DNA from: a virus
Taxonomy: Duplodnaviria > Caudoviricetes
IMG/VR virus record: IMGVR_UViG_2595698868_000001
Span: 215,968 to 279,967 of that record
Direction: 5' to 3' (one strand)
DNA length: 64,000 bases
Shown in pieces: positions 9,886 through 63,905 of this stretch. Position 1 is the stretch's first letter; the number at the start of each line of letters is the position of its first letter. The notes below the pieces were generated by a model. That model had not been told where the DNA came from. It searched no databases and was given only the letters and a program-made list of their open reading frames with translations. The position numbers were made by a program, and so were the translations under genes.

Positions 9886-10138
9886 GCTGATCTCGAAGTT
9901 CTCCGACGCCTACAATGCCTATCGTGACGCGCGCACGCCGCGCTACGTCGGGCATGTCAGGTTGCCGTACACGGCCTACAATCCTTTCATCGGGCTCTAT
10001 CAGGGCGGCGAAGACTTCATCCACTTCTACCGCACGCCCAAGGGCAAGCGGTCGGTGAAGGTCACGGATCGTCGCCTGATGCAGCGTCCCCTGGTTCAAG
10101 CCTATCTTCGAAACGGCACCCTGCCGCTCGCCGCGTGA
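9878..10138 (+). CDS. hypothetical protein
   Basis: Coupled ORF. Confidence 0.55.
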   Translation: MRKLISKFSDAYNAYRDARTPRYVGHVRLPYTAYNPFIGLYQGGEDFIHFYRTPKGKRSVKVTDRRLMQRPLVQAYLRNGTLPLAA

Positions 10139-24929: not shown

Positions 24930-25384
24930 CCCAAGAACGCTCACCCTGCCCCGATCTCGGCGGATACGTCCGTGATCCGGCCTATCACCTGATGCGCCTT
25001 CGGATGCTGCTGACCTGCACGAATGCTCCGGAGGACGCGGTGCTCCGCGACGCCCTGATCCGGCTGAACGCGCATCTGGAGAAGGACACGGACCTACTGT
25101 CCTCGCTCCGTGGTGAACGGAAGCTCCACTACGACATCATGTCCGATCCTCGTGAAGACGGGGGTGTTCGTATCTGGAGCTACACACTGCGCGGGCTGCA
25201 CCTTTCCGGCGCAGACAGTGGTGAAACGTTCGCCATGTTGCCGGATGCGATCAAGACGCTGTTGATCGCCAACGAGGGTGTTGCGGCCGACGAGATCATC
25301 TCGATCGCGATCAATCGCACGACGGATATCCCCTACAAGCGAGACGTCGTCGTCACACTGAAGCCGCTGCCGTCCGTTAACTAA
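24926..25384 (+). CDS. hypothetical protein
   Basis: Coupled ORF. Confidence 0.6.
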   Translation: MTQERSPCPDLGGYVRDPAYHLMRLRMLLTCTNAPEDAVLRDALIRLNAHLEKDTDLLSSLRGERKLHYDIMSDPREDGGVRIWSYTLRGLHLSGADSGETFAMLPDAIKTLLIANEGVAADEIISIAINRTTDIPYKRDVVVTLKPLPSVN

Positions 25385-25390
25385 GTCGAC

Positions 25391-25450
25391 GAAAAAAGTT
25401 CAAGAATCCTGTCATCAAGAGTTGACGGACGGCAGGGAGGCCAATAGATA
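25391..25450 (+). promoter_or_regulatory. sigma70-type promoter for the tRNA-like pair
   Basis: A-tract, then TTGACG (25422) N17 TAGATA (25445). Confidence 0.65.
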
Positions 25451-25493
25451 GACATCAAGCGCGGCGGAGAAATCCTAAGCGTCGATGAGAGAT

Positions 25494-25769
25494 CGGAGGG
25501 TAGCTCAGCGGGTAGAGCACCAGGGCCGCACAATCATCGGGTGAGACCAAGTTAGGTGACGCGGATGGCACATTCTTCAGTGCCGGAAACCGAGCCAAGC
25601 AAGGTTGGAAGTCCCTTTAGCGAGGGATGGACTTGGACGAAGATGAATACTGGCGAGGCGGTACGGGATAGGCCATTCCGGAAACCAGACTAGGAAAGTC
25701 GACGAAAGATCATTCGGTGCGCGGATGAAGACCTGGGTGTCGGGGGTTCGAATCCTTCCCCTCTGACCA
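25494..25769 (+). ncRNA. tRNA-like RNA 1 with a 200-nt insertion in the anticodon loop (25525-25724)
   Basis: Acceptor CGGAGGG/CCCTCTG-A-CCA, D arm GCTC..GAGC, anticodon stem CCAGG/CCTGG, T loop TTCGAAT; removing the insert leaves 76 nt with loop ATGAAGA. Confidence 0.85.
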
Positions 25770-25781
25770 TCTCTCGAATAA

Positions 25782-26030
25782 CGGTGTGTAGCTCAGGTGG
25801 TAGAGCGCCAGGGCCGGGATTACTGTGATGCTGCGGAACGAAGCCGACGCCGGGGTCGCTACTCGGAAGACGCTGGACTGAAGCAACGATGAGCTAGCGG
25901 ATTACACGGCTCAGCGCGATGGCTAACTTCGGCCATAAGCGGGTGCTGAAGAAACGCTGGCAAGAGTCGGGGATCACAGCCTGGATGAAGACCTGGAGGT
26001 CGGGCGTTCGACTCGCGCCCACACCGACCA
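25782..26030 (+). ncRNA. tRNA-like RNA 2 with a 172-nt insertion in the anticodon loop (25813-25984)
   Basis: Acceptor CGGTGTG/CACACCG-A-CCA, D arm GCTC..GAGC, stem CCAGG/CCTGG, T loop TTCGACT with one bulged G in the T stem; same ATGAAGA junction. Confidence 0.85.
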
Positions 26031-26058
26031 TTCCCTTTCACAGCACAGGAGGCCTCTC

Positions 26059-26604
26059 ATGACGATCACGATTGAGGCCTCGCTGCTGGCCAACGAAACC
26101 CCCTCGCAATTGGTCGGGCATATGCTCGATCTCGCTGACGTACGTCCTGGGCACTCGGTCCTGGAGCCCAGCGCGGGCGACGGCCGTCTCGCGTTCGAGG
26201 CCGTGGCCCGAGGCGCCGATGTCACCGCAATCGAACTGAACCAGCGCTGCTGCGAGAGCATCGCCAAGCAGCGTGACATGTACGGTCTTCCGAAGTCCGT
26301 CCTGGCAGTGCGCCGCTCCGACTTCCTGATGACGCCGGTGACGACGTTGTACGATCGCGTGGTCATGAACCCTCCGCGCGCCAATGTTCCGCACGTGACG
26401 CACGCCTACAGCTTCCTGAAGCCGGGCGGCCGACTGGTCGCGTTGATCCACCGTGAGCATGCCCAGGCGATCATCGTTCATCTGGGTGTTGTCGGTGATG
26501 CGGAATACTCGCTCACGACCCTGCCGGCCGGCATGTTCCATTTCGACGGCAAGCCGATCGAAGCCGCGCTCATCACGCTGTGGAAGCCGCATGAAGCTGC
26601 CTAG
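26059..26604 (+). CDS. SAM-dependent amino-methyltransferase-like protein
   Basis: VLEPSAGDG motif I and VVMNPP motif IV. Confidence 0.8.
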   Translation: MTITIEASLLANETPSQLVGHMLDLADVRPGHSVLEPSAGDGRLAFEAVARGADVTAIELNQRCCESIAKQRDMYGLPKSVLAVRRSDFLMTPVTTLYDRVVMNPPRANVPHVTHAYSFLKPGGRLVALIHREHAQAIIVHLGVVGDAEYSLTTLPAGMFHFDGKPIEAALITLWKPHEAA

Positions 26605-27079
26605 CCTGATCTGGCGCCGGCCCGGCGGCCTGGAGGAGTGTCCGTACTTCCGCTTGACCAAGCTGGACTTCGGCCCCTTCTCGATCCGCGCCCACGAGTG
26701 GAACGGCGACGACGATCACCGCGCCTATCACGATCACCCGAACTGGTTCATCACCTTAGTGCTGAAAGGTGGCTACACCGACGAGAGTCCGGACATGCGC
26801 CCTGAGGTGATCGAACGGCTTGGCGAGCCGGGCAAGGTCTATGACGTGCTTCGCGCAGGCTCGATCCGGTACCGCCGTGCCGACTTCGCCCACAAGGTCA
26901 TCAATGTCAAGCCGGGCACGGTCACGCTGCTGATCGCCGGCCGACCGTCGCGGCGTTGGGGCTTCTGGATCAAAGGCAAGCTGATCAAGCGCGATCGCTA
27001 CTTCATTGAGCAGGGCCACCACGGCTGCACGCCCGACGCGGCTCCGATCCGCAGACGTCCCGACGGTTCCCGGCTATGA
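26591..27079 (+). CDS. cupin-like phage protein
   Basis: HDHPNWFITLVLKGGYTD...FAHKV...RRWGFW. Confidence 0.65.
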   Translation: MKLPSLIWRRPGGLEECPYFRLTKLDFGPFSIRAHEWNGDDDHRAYHDHPNWFITLVLKGGYTDESPDMRPEVIERLGEPGKVYDVLRAGSIRYRRADFAHKVINVKPGTVTLLIAGRPSRRWGFWIKGKLIKRDRYFIEQGHHGCTPDAAPIRRRPDGSRL

Positions 27080-33061: not shown

Positions 33062-33137
33062 TGGCGATCCCTACTGGACTCGAACCAGTACCCGCCCTTT
33101 AGAAGAGGGCTGCCCTCTCCAGTTGGACCAAGGGACC
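33062..33137 (-). tRNA. tRNA-Arg(TCT)
   Basis: Reverse complement GGTCCCT..GCCCT-CTTCTAA-AGGGC..ACTGG-TTCGAGT-CCAGT-AGGGATC-G-CCA; 76-nt cloverleaf. Confidence 0.9.
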
Positions 33138-59198: not shown

Positions 59199-59705
59199 AT
59201 GTCGCGTATCCTGGGCATCGACCCCGGCGTCAACGGCGCTATCGCGCTCATCGACACCGACGACTGGTCGATCTGCATTACCGACATGCCGCGCGAGCCG
59301 GGCAAGGGTGGCAAGAACGCCGTCTCGCCGGCCGGATGCGCCCGCATCTTCGACGCCACCGCGCCCGACTACACCTTCATCGAAGACGTCTGGTCCTCGC
59401 CCCAGATGGGCGTCGTCTCGGCGTTCTCGTTCGGACGCAACCTCGGCATCCTCGAAGGCGCCGCCGCCAGCCGATCCATCCTGACCAAGGTGCGCCCACA
59501 GGATTGGAAGGCCGCGACCAAGACGCCCAAGGACAAGAACGAGGCCCGTCGCCGGGCCATGCAACTTTTTCCCTGCGCCTACGACCTCTTCAAGCGGGTC
59601 AAGGATGACGGTCGTGCGGAAGCCGCCATCCTCAGTTTCTACGGGCTCCTCAGCATCAAGTTGATGCCGCCCAAGCCGCTTATCCTGGTGGAGTTCCCTA
59701 ATTGA
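59199..59705 (+). CDS. ruvC: RuvC-like Holliday junction resolvase
   Basis: ILGIDPG, FIEDV, AFSFG, PQDWK, DGRAEAA. Confidence 0.85.
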   Translation: MSRILGIDPGVNGAIALIDTDDWSICITDMPREPGKGGKNAVSPAGCARIFDATAPDYTFIEDVWSSPQMGVVSAFSFGRNLGILEGAAASRSILTKVRPQDWKAATKTPKDKNEARRRAMQLFPCAYDLFKRVKDDGRAEAAILSFYGLLSIKLMPPKPLILVEFPN

Positions 59706-61184: not shown

Positions 61185-63905
61185 ATGACGTCCACCAACG
61201 TACCTGCCCCGTATCCGATGGAGCAGCGCAAGCGAACGCGCGCGGCCATCACCCAACTCAACGACCTCGCCCACAAGAGCCTGGAAGTCGCCCAGATGGG
61301 CCTCATCCTGCCGACCACGACCAAGCAGGCGATCATCAAGATCACCGGCACGTCCGATCCGAGCCAGCAGGTTGAAGCCCTGAACGATCTTTCCGAAAAG
61401 GTCCAGAAGCATCACCTGGAGCGGCTGCTGCCGTTGGCCAAGGACGAGTTCAACGCCTTCTGCGAATACGTCAACCCGGACGAGCCGCCGGAGTCGCCCT
61501 GGCATATGTGGCTCGTCGACAAGCTCCAGGAGATCGAGAACAACCCGCGCCTCAACCGCTTCATCCTGAATTGCCCGCCGGGCCACGCCAAGCCGCTGCA
61601 CGTGGACACGCTGGTCCGCATGGGCGACGGAAGCTGGAAGCGCCTGGGCGACATCAAGAAGGGCGATTTCGTCCTGTCGCATGTGGGCCTGTCGCGCGCC
61701 GTCACGGCCGTTCACGATCAGGGCGTGTTGCCCCTGCTGAAGATCACGACCCGGCGCGGTCGTGAAATCCTGTCGGCGCACGACCACTCGTTTCTGTCCA
61801 AGGGGAAGTGGAAGCAGGCCGTCGATCTGCGGCCGGGGGACCCGCTCGAAATCGTGGGCGCGGTGACGCCGCAAACGACCAAGGCTGCTGATCCTTACCC
61901 GGACCTGACCGAGGCGAACTACCGGCTCGCTGCCTGGGTCGTGGCGCGCATGTACCGCATCCACAAGAAGGACTTCCACGAATATTCCTTCTCGGTTAGC
62001 TTGGCGGGCCACCAGACCGCGCTCGAAAATCTGCTGACGCAGCACGCGATCCCATTCACCAATTATCCACGTGCGCAAGCTGGACGGTCCTACCACCGCC
62101 TCGGCACGAAGGCGATCAAGGCGTTTCTCGCGCGCTTCGACCTCGACGTGCCCACCGAAGAGCGCTGCATCCCGGAGAAGGTGTTCTCGGCGACCTACGC
62201 CAAGCGCAAGGTGTTCACCCAAGCTTATATCCAGGTTCGCGGAACCTTCAGCGGCAAGAAGACGCCGCTCGTGCGCTTCAACTACACGACCGAGAAGCAC
62301 GCCCGCGACTGGCAACGACTGCTCGCGTCGATGGGTGTGGATAGCTCCCTGACGATCCGTGAGCGCTCGTTCCGAGTCACGATTAGCGCACCGGGCCTGC
62401 GCGTCCTGGAGGAGCAGGAAATCTCCTTCCCCGGCGAAGAGCACGAAACCTATCTCAGCAAGCGCGCCGAGGCGATCAAGCCGCTATCGGACAGCGTCGC
62501 CTCGGTCGAGCCCGCCGGCGAAGGGCCGTGCAAGTGCCTCACCGTGAACCAGGATCACACCTTCCTCGCCGATGGCGTGGTCGTCCATAACTCGACCTAC
62601 GCCTCGCGCCTGTTCGTGGCGTGGCGTCTGGGCCGTAATCCGAAGCTGCGCATCATCGGCGGCGGCAACAGCCAGACGTTCGTCGAGAACGAGTTCTCGA
62701 AGAAGATTCGCAACCTCGTCACCACGCCGATGTACGGCAAGGTCTTCCCCTCTCTGGCGATCGACCCGAGCACGCGCGGCGCGCCGCAATGGGCCATCGC
62801 CGGCACGACTGGTCAGTACGCCGCCAAGGGCGTCGGCTCGCCCGTCCACGGTTTCCGCGCCAACTTCATCGTGGTCGACGACCCCTACGCTCGAATTGAA
62901 GAAGCTGAATCCGCGACCATCCGCGAGAAGGTCGCCACGTGGTTCATCGGGGACTTGGGCACGCGTCTCATGCCGGGCGGCAAGGTCTTCCTGGTCATGA
63001 CCCGGTTCCACGAGGACGATCTGACGTCCACGCTGATGAAGATGAACTCGCGCCTCAGCGAGCGCTCGCAGTGGCTCAAGGTGGAGGTGCCCGGCGTCTG
63101 CTACGAGGAAGAGGGCGACATCCTCGGCCGCAAGGTCGGCGATATGCTGTGGGACGTTTACGACCACACCTGGGCGAAGGAGAAGCAGGTCGAACTCGGC
63201 TTCCAGCGGTATTCCCTGGTCATCCAGCAGAACGACTCGGCCGCGTCCACCGAGAGCATCTCGGGCAACTTCAAGTATTACTCGATCCCGCCGCACCTCA
63301 CGAACGAGGCGCTGCGCAAGGCCCTGGCCGAGGGGCACGTCGACAAGCGTGGTCGTCCCAAGCCGAACCGCCGAGCATACTTCCGTCGCATCGTCCTCAG
63401 CGTCGACACCGCGTCCAAGCCCACCGAACGCGCTGACTACACGGTCATCCAGACCTGGGGCGAGACGTTCGACCGGCAGTATTACCTCCTGAACCAAAAG
63501 CGGGTGAAGGTCGACTTCAACGCGATGATCCAGGAGATCGAGACCCAGGCTCGCAAGGATGACGTCGACGCCATCCTGGTCGAAGACAAGGGCCAGGGTA
63601 CGGCCTACATCCAGAACCGAGGCAAGACCTCTTTCCAGAAGCGCCTCGCGCCGGCCCCGATCGTTCCGATCGACCCGAAGGGCCAGTCCAAGGAGTTCCG
63701 TTTCGACGAAGTGAGTCCCATGATCGTCGAGGGCTCTGTGTGGCTGCCGGAGGAAAAGGTCTGGATCAACGACTTCCTCAAGGAGGTCAGCCAGTTCCCC
63801 GAAGGCGCCCACGATGACCAAGTCGACGCCATGACCCAGGCCCTGCTCTACTTCAAGAAGTCGCGCGCTCGCGGCGGCATCCGCAAGATTGGTAGCTACG
63901 GTTAA
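61185..63905 (+). CDS. terL: terminase large subunit containing an intein
   Basis: Walker A PPGHAK|STYAS split by the intein, Walker B IVVDDP, MTRFHEDD, nuclease SVDTA..ADYT and FPEGAHDDQVDA. Confidence 0.95.
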   Translation: MTSTNVPAPYPMEQRKRTRAAITQLNDLAHKSLEVAQMGLILPTTTKQAIIKITGTSDPSQQVEALNDLSEKVQKHHLERLLPLAKDEFNAFCEYVNPDEPPESPWHMWLVDKLQEIENNPRLNRFILNCPPGHAKPLHVDTLVRMGDGSWKRLGDIKKGDFVLSHVGLSRAVTAVHDQGVLPLLKITTRRGREILSAHDHSFLSKGKWKQAVDLRPGDPLEIVGAVTPQTTKAADPYPDLTEANYRLAAWVVARMYRIHKKDFHEYSFSVSLAGHQTALENLLTQHAIPFTNYPRAQAGRSYHRLGTKAIKAFLARFDLDVPTEERCIPEKVFSATYAKRKVFTQAYIQVRGTFSGKKTPLVRFNYTTEKHARDWQRLLASMGVDSSLTIRERSFRVTISAPGLRVLEEQEISFPGEEHETYLSKRAEAIKPLSDSVASVEPAGEGPCKCLTVNQDHTFLADGVVVHNSTYASRLFVAWRLGRNPKLRIIGGGNSQTFVENEFSKKIRNLVTTPMYGKVFPSLAIDPSTRGAPQWAIAGTTGQYAAKGVGSPVHGFRANFIVVDDPYARIEEAESATIREKVATWFIGDLGTRLMPGGKVFLVMTRFHEDDLTSTLMKMNSRLSERSQWLKVEVPGVCYEEEGDILGRKVGDMLWDVYDHTWAKEKQVELGFQRYSLVIQQNDSAASTESISGNFKYYSIPPHLTNEALRKALAEGHVDKRGRPKPNRRAYFRRIVLSVDTASKPTERADYTVIQTWGETFDRQYYLLNQKRVKVDFNAMIQEIETQARKDDVDAILVEDKGQGTAYIQNRGKTSFQKRLAPAPIVPIDPKGQSKEFRFDEVSPMIVEGSVWLPEEKVWINDFLKEVSQFPEGAHDDQVDAMTQALLYFKKSRARGGIRKIGSYG
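61593..62591 (+). mobile_element. 333-aa intein, Pro-initiated and class-3-like, with a degenerate LAGLIDADG-like region
   Basis: PLHVDTLVRMGDG...SAHDHSF...CKCLTV..HTFLADGVVVHN|S. Confidence 0.9.

Follow-up and report, generated by a model that had tools for sequence, protein, structure and literature searches.

Insert-bearing tRNA-Phe genes of the Caulobacter phage CcrColossus and related jumbo phages: a new RNA family with an unspliced and a spliced reading

To our knowledge, transfer RNA (tRNA) genes of bacteria and phages are interrupted only by group I introns, apart from a few 'enigmatic' introns of megaphages. Group I introns occur in the anticodon loops of bacterial tRNAs, such as tRNA-Ile of Azoarcus and tRNA-Leu of cyanobacteria, and almost all members of this group have a U at the 5' splice site. 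In the specifier loop of T-box Stem I, a codon and a following purine are displayed for the anticodon of a tRNA. A synthetic tRNA scaffold is reportedly due to Ponchon and Dardel, in which a cargo RNA is carried on the anticodon stem and is processed and stabilised by cellular enzymes. The available part of Devoto et al. (2019, PMC6784885) describes 'enigmatic', highly conserved tRNA introns of Lak megaphages, which are unexplained and belong to no Rfam class. Here, two adjacent genes of the giant Caulobacter phage CcrColossus, RNA 1 and RNA 2, are described, in which a tRNA-Phe body encloses a large insert in the anticodon loop. The analysed DNA (the window) comprises 64,000 nucleotides (nt) and is the last 64 kb of the CcrColossus record of 279,967 b (IMG/VR record IMGVR_UViG_2595698868_000001, positions 215,968 to 279,967); unless stated otherwise, positions refer to the window. 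Comparison of the sequences indicates that insert-bearing tRNA-Phe genes are a small conserved RNA family of Colossus-like jumbo phages, derived from tRNA-Phe. These genes are conserved and covary, yet fail every test for known intron types and tRNA-like RNA families.

With introns allowed, ARAGORN assigned both RNA 1 (25494-25769, 276 nt) and RNA 2 (25782-26030, 249 nt) to tRNA-Phe(gaa) and placed an intron after position 31, of 200 nt in RNA 1 and of 172 nt in RNA 2. Both genes have all four arms (acceptor, D, anticodon and T) in complete form, together with A73 and an encoded CCA. The initial annotation, a reading of the DNA letters, had described two such adjacent genes, and the covariation across five genes reported below agrees with it. 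Neither gene was called in the window by ARAGORN with default settings or by the Rfam tRNA model at gathering score, the sole call of these searches being a tRNA-Arg(tct). In both genes the anticodon stem is CCAGG/CCUGG and encloses a G, the insert and AUGAAGA; junction and insert lengths were exactly as first annotated. The contiguous 7-nt anticodon loop of a tRNA is thus interrupted, in all members of the family, by 168-200 nt after position 31. The closest non-self matches of the 3' half of RNA 1, from AUGAAGA to CCA, were annotated tRNA-Phe genes of other phages, and such genes are resembled by the 3' halves of both RNAs.

The initial annotation had also asked for conserved homologues in related phages, and these were found in the phage CcrPW, in a contig of sequencing run X1 and in a viral contig, G001. 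CcrPW is the nearest public phage, with a match of 91.2% over 25400-26100; RNA 1 and RNA 2 both recur in it with synteny kept, and nothing is annotated there between gp365 and gp366. The relative in run X1 is represented by a DNA contig with a homologous RNA 1/RNA 2 region, which continues into both flanks. G001 has 278,859 b and stems from a distant syntenic jumbo phage. It carries one insert-bearing gene (locus L270, 9654-9897, minus strand), which is shaped like tRNA-Phe(gaa), has C1-G72, A73 and CCA, bears a 168-nt insert at the same site, and adjoins homologues of the methyltransferase gene and of the next gene, as in CcrColossus. Seven characters were shared by 5/5 genes (RNA 1 and RNA 2 of CcrColossus and of CcrPW, and the G001 gene): C1-G72, A73, CCA, G32, an insert closed by CC/GG, AUGAAGA, and an 8-nt loop nnnCUUCr, which for RNA 1 of CcrPW was deduced from the absence of differences to CcrColossus.

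The tRNA bodies were compared against the background of divergence between CcrColossus and CcrPW, in which identity is 86-89% in the flanking genes and 97.4% in the ordinary tRNA cluster. Pairing is kept among the five genes despite changes at three pairs of the acceptor stem (2, 4 and 6), two of the anticodon stem (3 and 4) and one of the T stem (4). In RNA 1, acceptor pair 4-69 is A-U in CcrColossus and C-G in both CcrPW and X1, and the anticodon stem of G001 (CCGAG/CUCGG) differs from CCAGG/CCUGG by two compensatory pairs. The junction itself, G-CC...GG-AUGAAGA, is invariant in 5/5 genes. Because stem pairs change while staying paired, the tRNA fold of RNA 1 and RNA 2 is more than chance, and the pattern of substitutions indicates that the tRNA fold of the insert-bearing genes is under selection. 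The conserved tRNA bases U8, A14, G18G19, U54U55C56 and A58 were present, and exceptions were confined to the D loop of CcrPW RNA 1 and the T stems of RNA 2 and G001. The CcrPW D loop reads UAGUGGUA, with A14 and G15 missing; the T stem of RNA 2 has one G.G mismatch and one extra base, that of G001 a C.C mismatch. The T-stem pairs concerned matter for EF-Tu binding.

Exons and inserts evolve differently in the two genes. RNA 1 matches CcrPW in 194/200 positions of the insert (97%) and in 69/76 of the exons, so that its insert is more conserved than the flanking genes, level with the ordinary tRNA cluster, and above its own exons. RNA 2 matches in 77/77 exon positions (31/31 in the 5' half, 46/46 in the 3' half) and in 135 of 173 aligned columns of the insert (78%).

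The inserts of all three types (RNA 1, RNA 2 and G001) have one base architecture, consisting of G32, a 4-6-bp helix opening with CC/GG (S1), an A/U-rich 5' bulge (ACAAU, AUUA and UAAA, respectively) and a second helix (S2). The closing stems first annotated, ccgc/gcgg in RNA 1 and ccggg/cctgg in RNA 2, are kept, and ccagc/gctgg is found in G001. In RNA 1, S2 is a 10-bp helix (RNA 1 positions 42-51/217-226) of the minimum free energy (MFE) fold, and the CcrPW change at 25717 turns U.G into U-A; a helix tcatc/gatga proposed earlier competes with S2, which is preferred by the MFE fold and supported by this change. Several other helices of the initial annotation gained support from compensatory changes. 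The RNA 1 hairpin tccct/aggga (25612-16/25623-27) shows two pairs of compensatory changes in X1 (25614 C>T and 25625 G>A; 25616 T>C and 25623 A>G), and S2 of RNA 2 (ctgtgat/atcacag) has two in CcrPW. The stem atggc/gccat of RNA 2 (25919-23/25932-36) is rebuilt in CcrPW by four compensatory pairs, with the loop unchanged. In the RNA 2 hairpin at 25850-66, the X1 change 25853 G>A turns G.U into A-U. The RNA 1 helix ggcac/gtgcc shows one one-sided change, C>U at 25584, which yields G.U, and ccaagt/acttgg of RNA 1 does not vary among the relatives compared. Two helices proposed for RNA 2, ccgac/gtcgg and tgagct/ggctca, are broken by CcrPW changes. MFE z-scores were not significant (0.00, -0.81 and -0.79), and such folds say little in G+C-rich RNA.

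The inserts had first been described as showing no obvious similarity. This was partly right: the three types have only short motifs and no alignable core in common, and whole-insert MAFFT alignments were untrustworthy; the base architecture and the CUUC loop are nevertheless shared. RNA 2 and G001 also have in common the word GGAUUAC and a hairpin whose 7-nt loop, GUCGCUA, is identical and whose stems differ (CCGGG/CUCGG and CAAGG/CCUUG). A circular permutation between these two inserts was considered and dropped, as the order of the three motifs is a 50% chance event. An enrichment of CsrA-type GGA or GGAU motifs in the inserts was only 2-3-fold and was likewise dropped.

A hairpin with an 8-nt loop nnnCUUCr, with CUUC in one register, is present in RNA 1 and RNA 2 (loops in Table 1) and in G001 (CCACUUCA). 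The C-UUC-R segment, a Phe codon with its flanks, is complementary to U33-G34-A35-A36-G37 of the conserved AUGAAGA, with a duplex energy of -3.9 to -5.3 kcal/mol. By chance, such a hairpin arose in 54-75 of 2000 dinucleotide shuffles per insert. The RNA 1 loop is unchanged in CcrPW and in runs X1, X2, X3 and X6, and the codon-like loops are fixed in every relative seen, while their stems change. G37, the partner of the C before UUC, occurs in 5/5 insert-bearing genes; the ordinary tRNA-Phe of 4/4 related phages examined (CcrBL9, phiCbK, CcrRogue and G001) has A37. From these features we infer that the codon-like loop pairs with the RNA's own anticodon, which would explain the frozen AUGAAGA. 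The idea that the first bases of the insert serve as anticodon, suggested by the Pro-like C1-G72/A73 end, was rejected: the three types would then have the anticodons CGC, CGG and CAG, and U33 would be missing from each.

Among described systems, the Lak introns resemble the present inserts as unexplained conserved tRNA inserts of very large phages without an Rfam class. The inserts described here are multi-helix domains of 168-200 nt at site 31/32 with a codon-like loop, and are set apart from the Lak introns by description only, as far as the available part of that report goes. Searches with Rfam at E<=10 on 25350-26150 (801 b) and on the G001 locus gave nothing relevant, and the same was true of the whole window at gathering score. 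The RNAs resemble transfer-messenger RNA (tmRNA) in that a tRNA-like acceptor/T module bearing CCA is combined with a large structured domain at the anticodon region; unlike tmRNA, they have a full D stem (4 bp) and anticodon stem, and G3-C70 instead of G3.U70. The best Rfam tmRNA match was a 10-bit fragment, and the tmRNA search of ARAGORN, which reports the tag peptide, made no call, no separate search for a tag frame being made. YrlA and bacterial Y RNA-like RNAs are also stable phage-encoded RNAs in which a tRNA-like module is joined to a second structured module, but YrlA is circularly permuted with the T arm first, which RNA 1 and RNA 2 are not. The comparison with YrlA (RF02553), which the initial annotation had called for, gave only a match of 25.3 bits against a cut-off of 69; as this match extends from the 3' half of RNA 1 into the 5' half of RNA 2, it is an artefact produced by tRNA-like parts. 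The display of a codon and a following purine in a loop recalls the T-box, from which the RNAs differ in that the putative pairing is in cis within one RNA, and no T-box family match or antiterminator was found. The synthetic tRNA scaffold is a laboratory design; RNA 1 and RNA 2 are natural and retain the anticodon loop beside the cargo.

The reading we favour, at a probability of about 0.45, is that RNA 1 and RNA 2 are stable, unspliced, tRNA-scaffolded RNAs. More specifically, and with somewhat greater reserve, they may represent a new class of phage non-coding RNA: a never-spliced tRNA-Phe body whose anticodon is clamped onto the Phe codon of its own inserted domain of 170-200 nt. Both RNAs would be transcribed ahead of the methyltransferase operon, cut out by ordinary tRNA end-processing, and accumulate mainly in unspliced form, at about 276 and 249 nt. 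The tRNA body would provide the processing signals, the CCA end and stability. From the anticodon arm, between positions 31/32 and 32, a helical stalk (G32, the 4-6-bp helix, the A/U-rich bulge and the second helix) would emerge and bear the folded domain, in which one hairpin would present C-UUC-purine for pairing with U33-G34-A35-A36-G37 of the retained anticodon loop. An anticodon held in cis by a codon-like hairpin would keep the RNA out of decoding. As to function, a decoy or adaptor for a tRNA-recognising protein, such as a host tRNA-directed defence enzyme or phenylalanyl-tRNA synthetase (PheRS), is our guess; the lack of splicing, like any function, is itself deduced.

G001 has an ordinary tRNA-Phe(GAA) at 88717-88792 besides its insert-bearing gene, which is therefore not simply the tRNA-Phe of that phage. 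For the same reason, a complementary distribution of insert-bearing genes and ordinary tRNA-Phe genes was dropped. Contigs were the only sequencing evidence; in three runs (X2, X3 and X6) short contigs were confined to RNA 1. For X2 and X6 the label 'RNA' is guessed, for X3 it is not known, and X2 and X3 may be a single data set. A 217-nt contig of X6 (depth 70.6) runs from 25553 to 25769, with the final A of CCA as its last base, and 256-nt contigs (depth 4.1) cover 25510-25760, spanning both insert/exon junctions of RNA 1. A joined form was not seen in the four runs, parts of which were without cover.

Several points weigh against the unspliced reading. The contig evidence for unspliced RNA is weak and a hint only, and the absence of a spliced form says little, since mature tRNA is rarely captured by standard libraries. 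No covariation supports the pairing of CUUC with the anticodon, because both sides are invariant, and GAAG is also found elsewhere in the inserts, about 2-fold enriched, so that the CUUC loop could have another partner. CcrColossus and CcrPW, with 28 tRNAs, have no other tRNA-Phe, as would be expected if at least RNA 2 were spliced into a working tRNA-Phe; CcrBL9, phiCbK and CcrRogue, three relatives without insert-bearing genes, have one each. RNA 2 also resembles an intron-bearing tRNA in its fully conserved exons and fast-evolving insert. Without the insert, the anticodon loop would be a textbook one of 7 nt, in which U33 is present and position 37 is a purine. Eukaryal and archaeal pre-tRNAs, moreover, typically have introns that pair with the anticodon, and the phage encodes both RtcB (168272-169417 of the CcrColossus genome) and a PF09414 RNA ligase.

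These last points would fit a protein-spliced tRNA intron, the rival that survives best, although we regard it as rather unlikely. An endonuclease of phage or host would recognise the tRNA body, the G/AUGAAGA internal loop and the stalk, and cut at the conserved junction; RtcB or the phage RNA ligase would join the exons into a canonical tRNA-Phe(GAA) of 76-77 nt, and the insert would be discarded or kept as a separate, perhaps circular, RNA. A junction identical in 5/5 genes is what a common recognition site would lead one to expect, and the compensatory changes in the RNA 2 insert agree with this. As in archaeal and eukaryal pre-tRNAs, anticodon masking is predicted, RtcB is present in the genome, and two bulges on opposite strands around a short helix (4-6 bp) recall the bulge-helix-bulge (BHB) layout. 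The bulges of 7 and 4-5 nt differ, however, from the two 3-nt bulges around a 4-bp helix of that motif, the site is not 37/38, and the inserts are about ten times longer than typical archaeal or eukaryal tRNA introns. By the usual BHB rules, cutting in the bulges would yield exons without U33 and with three different anticodons. No EndA-family endonuclease (PF01974) was detected at E<=1 in the phage genome, the host not being searched. RtcB also occurs in phiCbK and CcrBL10, where the pattern of insert-bearing genes was not found; it thus does not track these genes, and the idea that it does was abandoned. The ordinary tRNA-Phe kept by G001, the T-stem mismatches of RNA 2 and G001, the RNA 1 insert that is more conserved than its exons, the loss of A14 and G15 in CcrPW RNA 1 and, weakly, the lack of a joined form in the contigs also argue against splicing. 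The remaining probability may lie with mixed cases, for example with RNA 2 spliced and RNA 1 not.

A new class of self-cleaving or self-splicing ribozyme is improbable. The domain would cut at the junction, leaving a 2',3'-cyclic phosphate and a 5'-OH for RtcB, which is encoded, or would carry out both steps, with the CUUC loop as a guide holding the 3' exon. Conservation of the RNA 1 insert at tRNA level, the GG at the end of every insert, the invariant junction and the guide-like complementarity of the loop to the first bases of the 3' exon would be in keeping with this. No match to an Rfam ribozyme family was obtained at E<=10, the three inserts have no alignable core, and contigs that span the junctions exist. 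A catalytic core would hardly be expected to change faster than neutral-looking flanks, as the RNA 2 insert does (78% identity, with 86-89% in the flanks). AUGAAGA was also considered as a hammerhead-like element, which was rejected, there being no three-way junction and no Rfam match.

Divergent group I introns overlooked by the Rfam model are very improbable. The inserts resemble tRNA group I introns in being structured, in lying in the anticodon loop, in ending with G and in carrying bases complementary to the anticodon loop, and at 200 nt the RNA 1 insert is near the smallest group I introns (about 200 nt). However, the last base of the 5' exon is G in 5/5 genes, no U is present in the 5' strand of the anticodon stem or at position 32, the site is 31/32, no core is shared, and two of the inserts, at 168 and 172 nt, fall below the length of every natural group I intron known to us. 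With the group I model RF00028, neither the 801-b region nor the complete CcrColossus genome gave a match at E<=10; the identical search was positive in 8/14 control genomes. The initial annotation had recognised neither a group I intron nor a tmRNA, in agreement with these results.

Dead tRNA genes with junk insertions, or a false positive of ARAGORN, are hardly credible. ARAGORN is error-prone with introns: 6/8 calls with -i0,400 in the genome lie outside RNA 1 and RNA 2 and look spurious (three of the six were inspected, and one of the remaining three was judged to lie inside the methyltransferase gene), and 6/6 calls with -i401,3000 also look spurious. For RNA 1 and RNA 2, this reading is contradicted by conservation of the RNA 2 exons (100%) and the RNA 1 insert (97%) against the 86-89% background, by compensatory changes in tRNA stems and insert helices, by synteny across three lineages and by the encoded CCA.

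The initial interpretation is thus supported in part. No known intron or tRNA-like family was recognised, and a new class of tRNA-scaffolded RNA or a new type of protein-spliced intron is compatible with all evidence found; two helices, the promoter call and wholly unrelated inserts were not upheld.

Further members were sought in several collections. A blastn search with 'distant' settings against 50,697 phage records matched only CcrPW, whose single genome is present as 2 records. When IMG/VR was scanned for the 3' junction together with the T loop, 30 stretches were obtained, two of them tRNA-type (CcrPW and G001); another pattern scan gave one stretch, from CcrPW. In a further IMG/VR pattern scan, G001 was the sole tRNA-type among 116 inspected loci of the matches listed; CcrPW (L004) was listed and not inspected. 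The junction-plus-T-arm pattern was not found in phiCbK, CcrRogue, CcrBL10 or CcrBL9. Metagenome contigs gave 22 matches, all of them chance matches in coding DNA. Bacterial genome contigs gave 14 matches and no member, two being 3' tRNA-like fragments without a 5' half. Apart from CcrPW, a search for gp367-like proteins gave a single contig, which is unrelated and has no tRNA. Methyltransferase homologues are widespread in small phages (80 loci kept, not scanned for tRNAs) and were of no aid in finding members. No description of these RNAs was found in the literature; supplementary tables (Table S6 of Gill 2012 and Supplementary Table 6 of Devoto 2019) could list such genes or introns. For CcrColossus, the available part of Gill et al. 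(2012, PMC3556154) gives 28 tRNAs without any further RNA element, and the word 'intron' does not occur in it.

The fragments in bacterial contigs were found in two places. A contig of a Blastocatellia metagenome-assembled genome (L308) has two tandem 3' tRNA-like fragments starting with AUGAAGA at ~690-990, with no 5' half nearby, one of which is a mini acceptor/T-arm hairpin ending in ACCA. A Corynebacterium lactis contig (L315) has a 3' tRNA-like fragment from AUGAAGA on its minus strand, again with no 5' half nearby. These fragments could be integration-site remnants or belong to another tRNA-like RNA.

Table 1. Positions of RNA and neighbouring features in the window
Feature	Position	Strand	Evidence or remark
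Upstream region, promoter-like, with TTGACG (25422-25427)	25400..25468	+	68/69 identical to CcrPW, against 86-89% in flanking genes
RNA 1 leader arm GAGAGAT, complementary to trailer ATCTCTC (25770-25776)	25487..25493	+	Unchanged in CcrPW
RNA 1, tRNA 5' half (acceptor 5' strand, D arm, anticodon-stem 5' strand)	25494..25524	+	ARAGORN -i
RNA 1, insert, 200 nt, begins with G32	25525..25724	+	ARAGORN -i
RNA 1, insert S1	25526-29/25721-24	+	
RNA 1, insert 5' bulge ACAAU	25530-34	+	
RNA 1, insert S2	25535-44/25710-19	+	
RNA 1, codon-like hairpin, loop AUUCUUCA (25572-25579)	25567..25584	+	
RNA 1, hairpin UCCCU/AGGGA	25612..25627	+	
RNA 1, AUGAAGA (25725-25731) and tRNA 3' half with A73, CCA	25725..25769	+	ARAGORN -i
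RNA 2, tRNA 5' half	25782..25812	+	ARAGORN -i
RNA 2, insert, 172 nt, begins with G32	25813..25984	+	ARAGORN -i
RNA 2, insert S1	25814-18/25980-84	+	
RNA 2, insert bulge AUUA	25819-22	+	
RNA 2, insert S2	25823-29/25973-79	+	
RNA 2, hairpin, loop GUCGCUA	25850-66	+	
RNA 2, codon-like hairpin, loop UAACUUCG (25924-25931)	25919..25936	+	
RNA 2, AUGAAGA (25985-25991) and tRNA 3' half with A73, CCA	25985..26030	+	ARAGORN -i
Class I S-adenosylmethionine (SAM) methyltransferase gene, co-oriented, downstream	26059..26604	+	Pfam Cons_hypoth95/MTS; PHROG 'DNA methyltransferase'
Gene after the methyltransferase gene	26591-27079	+	PHROG 4786 'cysteine dioxygenase', E 4.7e-46; kept near the RNA gene in G001

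The genes around RNA 1 and RNA 2 are listed in Table 1. A sigma70-type promoter had been proposed at 25422; its TTGACG is present, and 0 promoters were called upstream of RNA 1 by a sigma-70 scan. In G001, TTGACA-17 nt-TAATCT lies a few bases upstream of the insert-bearing gene. This element is inside a perfect 12-bp inverted repeat, GTAGGAGTTGAC / GTCAACTCCTAC (L270 ~9898-9960, minus strand). The pairing of the RNA 1 flanks (gagagat/atctctc) was confirmed. Between RNA 2 and the methyltransferase gene, 0 terminator-like sites were found, and in G001 the CCA is 14 nt from the ATG of the methyltransferase gene.

Elsewhere in the CcrColossus genome, Ro60 is encoded at 107635-108432. Beside it, at 108600-109600 on the minus strand, lies an array in which tRNA-like units of permuted order (T arm, then a closed acceptor stem, then the D arm) are repeated, every one of them starting with GGGTGGCGTAG. 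According to the available part of a report on such RNAs (PMC12135203), this array corresponds to the Y RNA-like RNAs of CcrColossus. ARAGORN -i stitches units of the array into false intron-bearing tRNAs. Motifs shared between the inserts and the array were sought, and none was found beyond chance 8-9-mers.

Some further tRNA genes were noted. The tRNA-Arg(tct) of the window (33062-33137, minus strand) is ordinary, isolated and distant from the main tRNA clusters. The tRNA-Trp, Lys, Asn, Cys and Met of CcrColossus (genome positions 59240-59325, 62019-62108, 69054-69142, 132216-132302 and 133537-133623) are 86-90 nt long; unusually for these amino acids, they have a long variable arm with a GCAA or GAAA cap. 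In G001, a tRNA with an Rfam score of 38.5 bits lies ~850 nt upstream of the insert-bearing gene (L270 10752-10829, minus strand, equal to G001 204751-204828); its anticodon loop is GCAUACA, without U33, and ARAGORN names it 'Tyr(ata)'.

The insert-bearing tRNA-Phe RNAs are a new family, and their mechanism is left between the unspliced and the spliced reading. If they are spliced, tRNA splicing in a phage of Caulobacter, a model bacterium, follows a route that has not been described in bacteria. If they are unspliced, the synthetic tRNA scaffold has a counterpart in nature, with a codon-anticodon clamp built in, and phage tRNA biology would gain a new kind of player. As phage and host can be cultured, the question of splicing is directly testable. 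The repertoire of CcrColossus for handling tRNA and RNA already includes RtcB, an RNA ligase, and Ro60 with Y RNA-like RNAs. Should the clamp be real, the RNA could be recognised, and perhaps charged, by tRNA-handling proteins and yet be barred from the ribosome, as a decoy or adaptor in the contest between phage and host over tRNAs.

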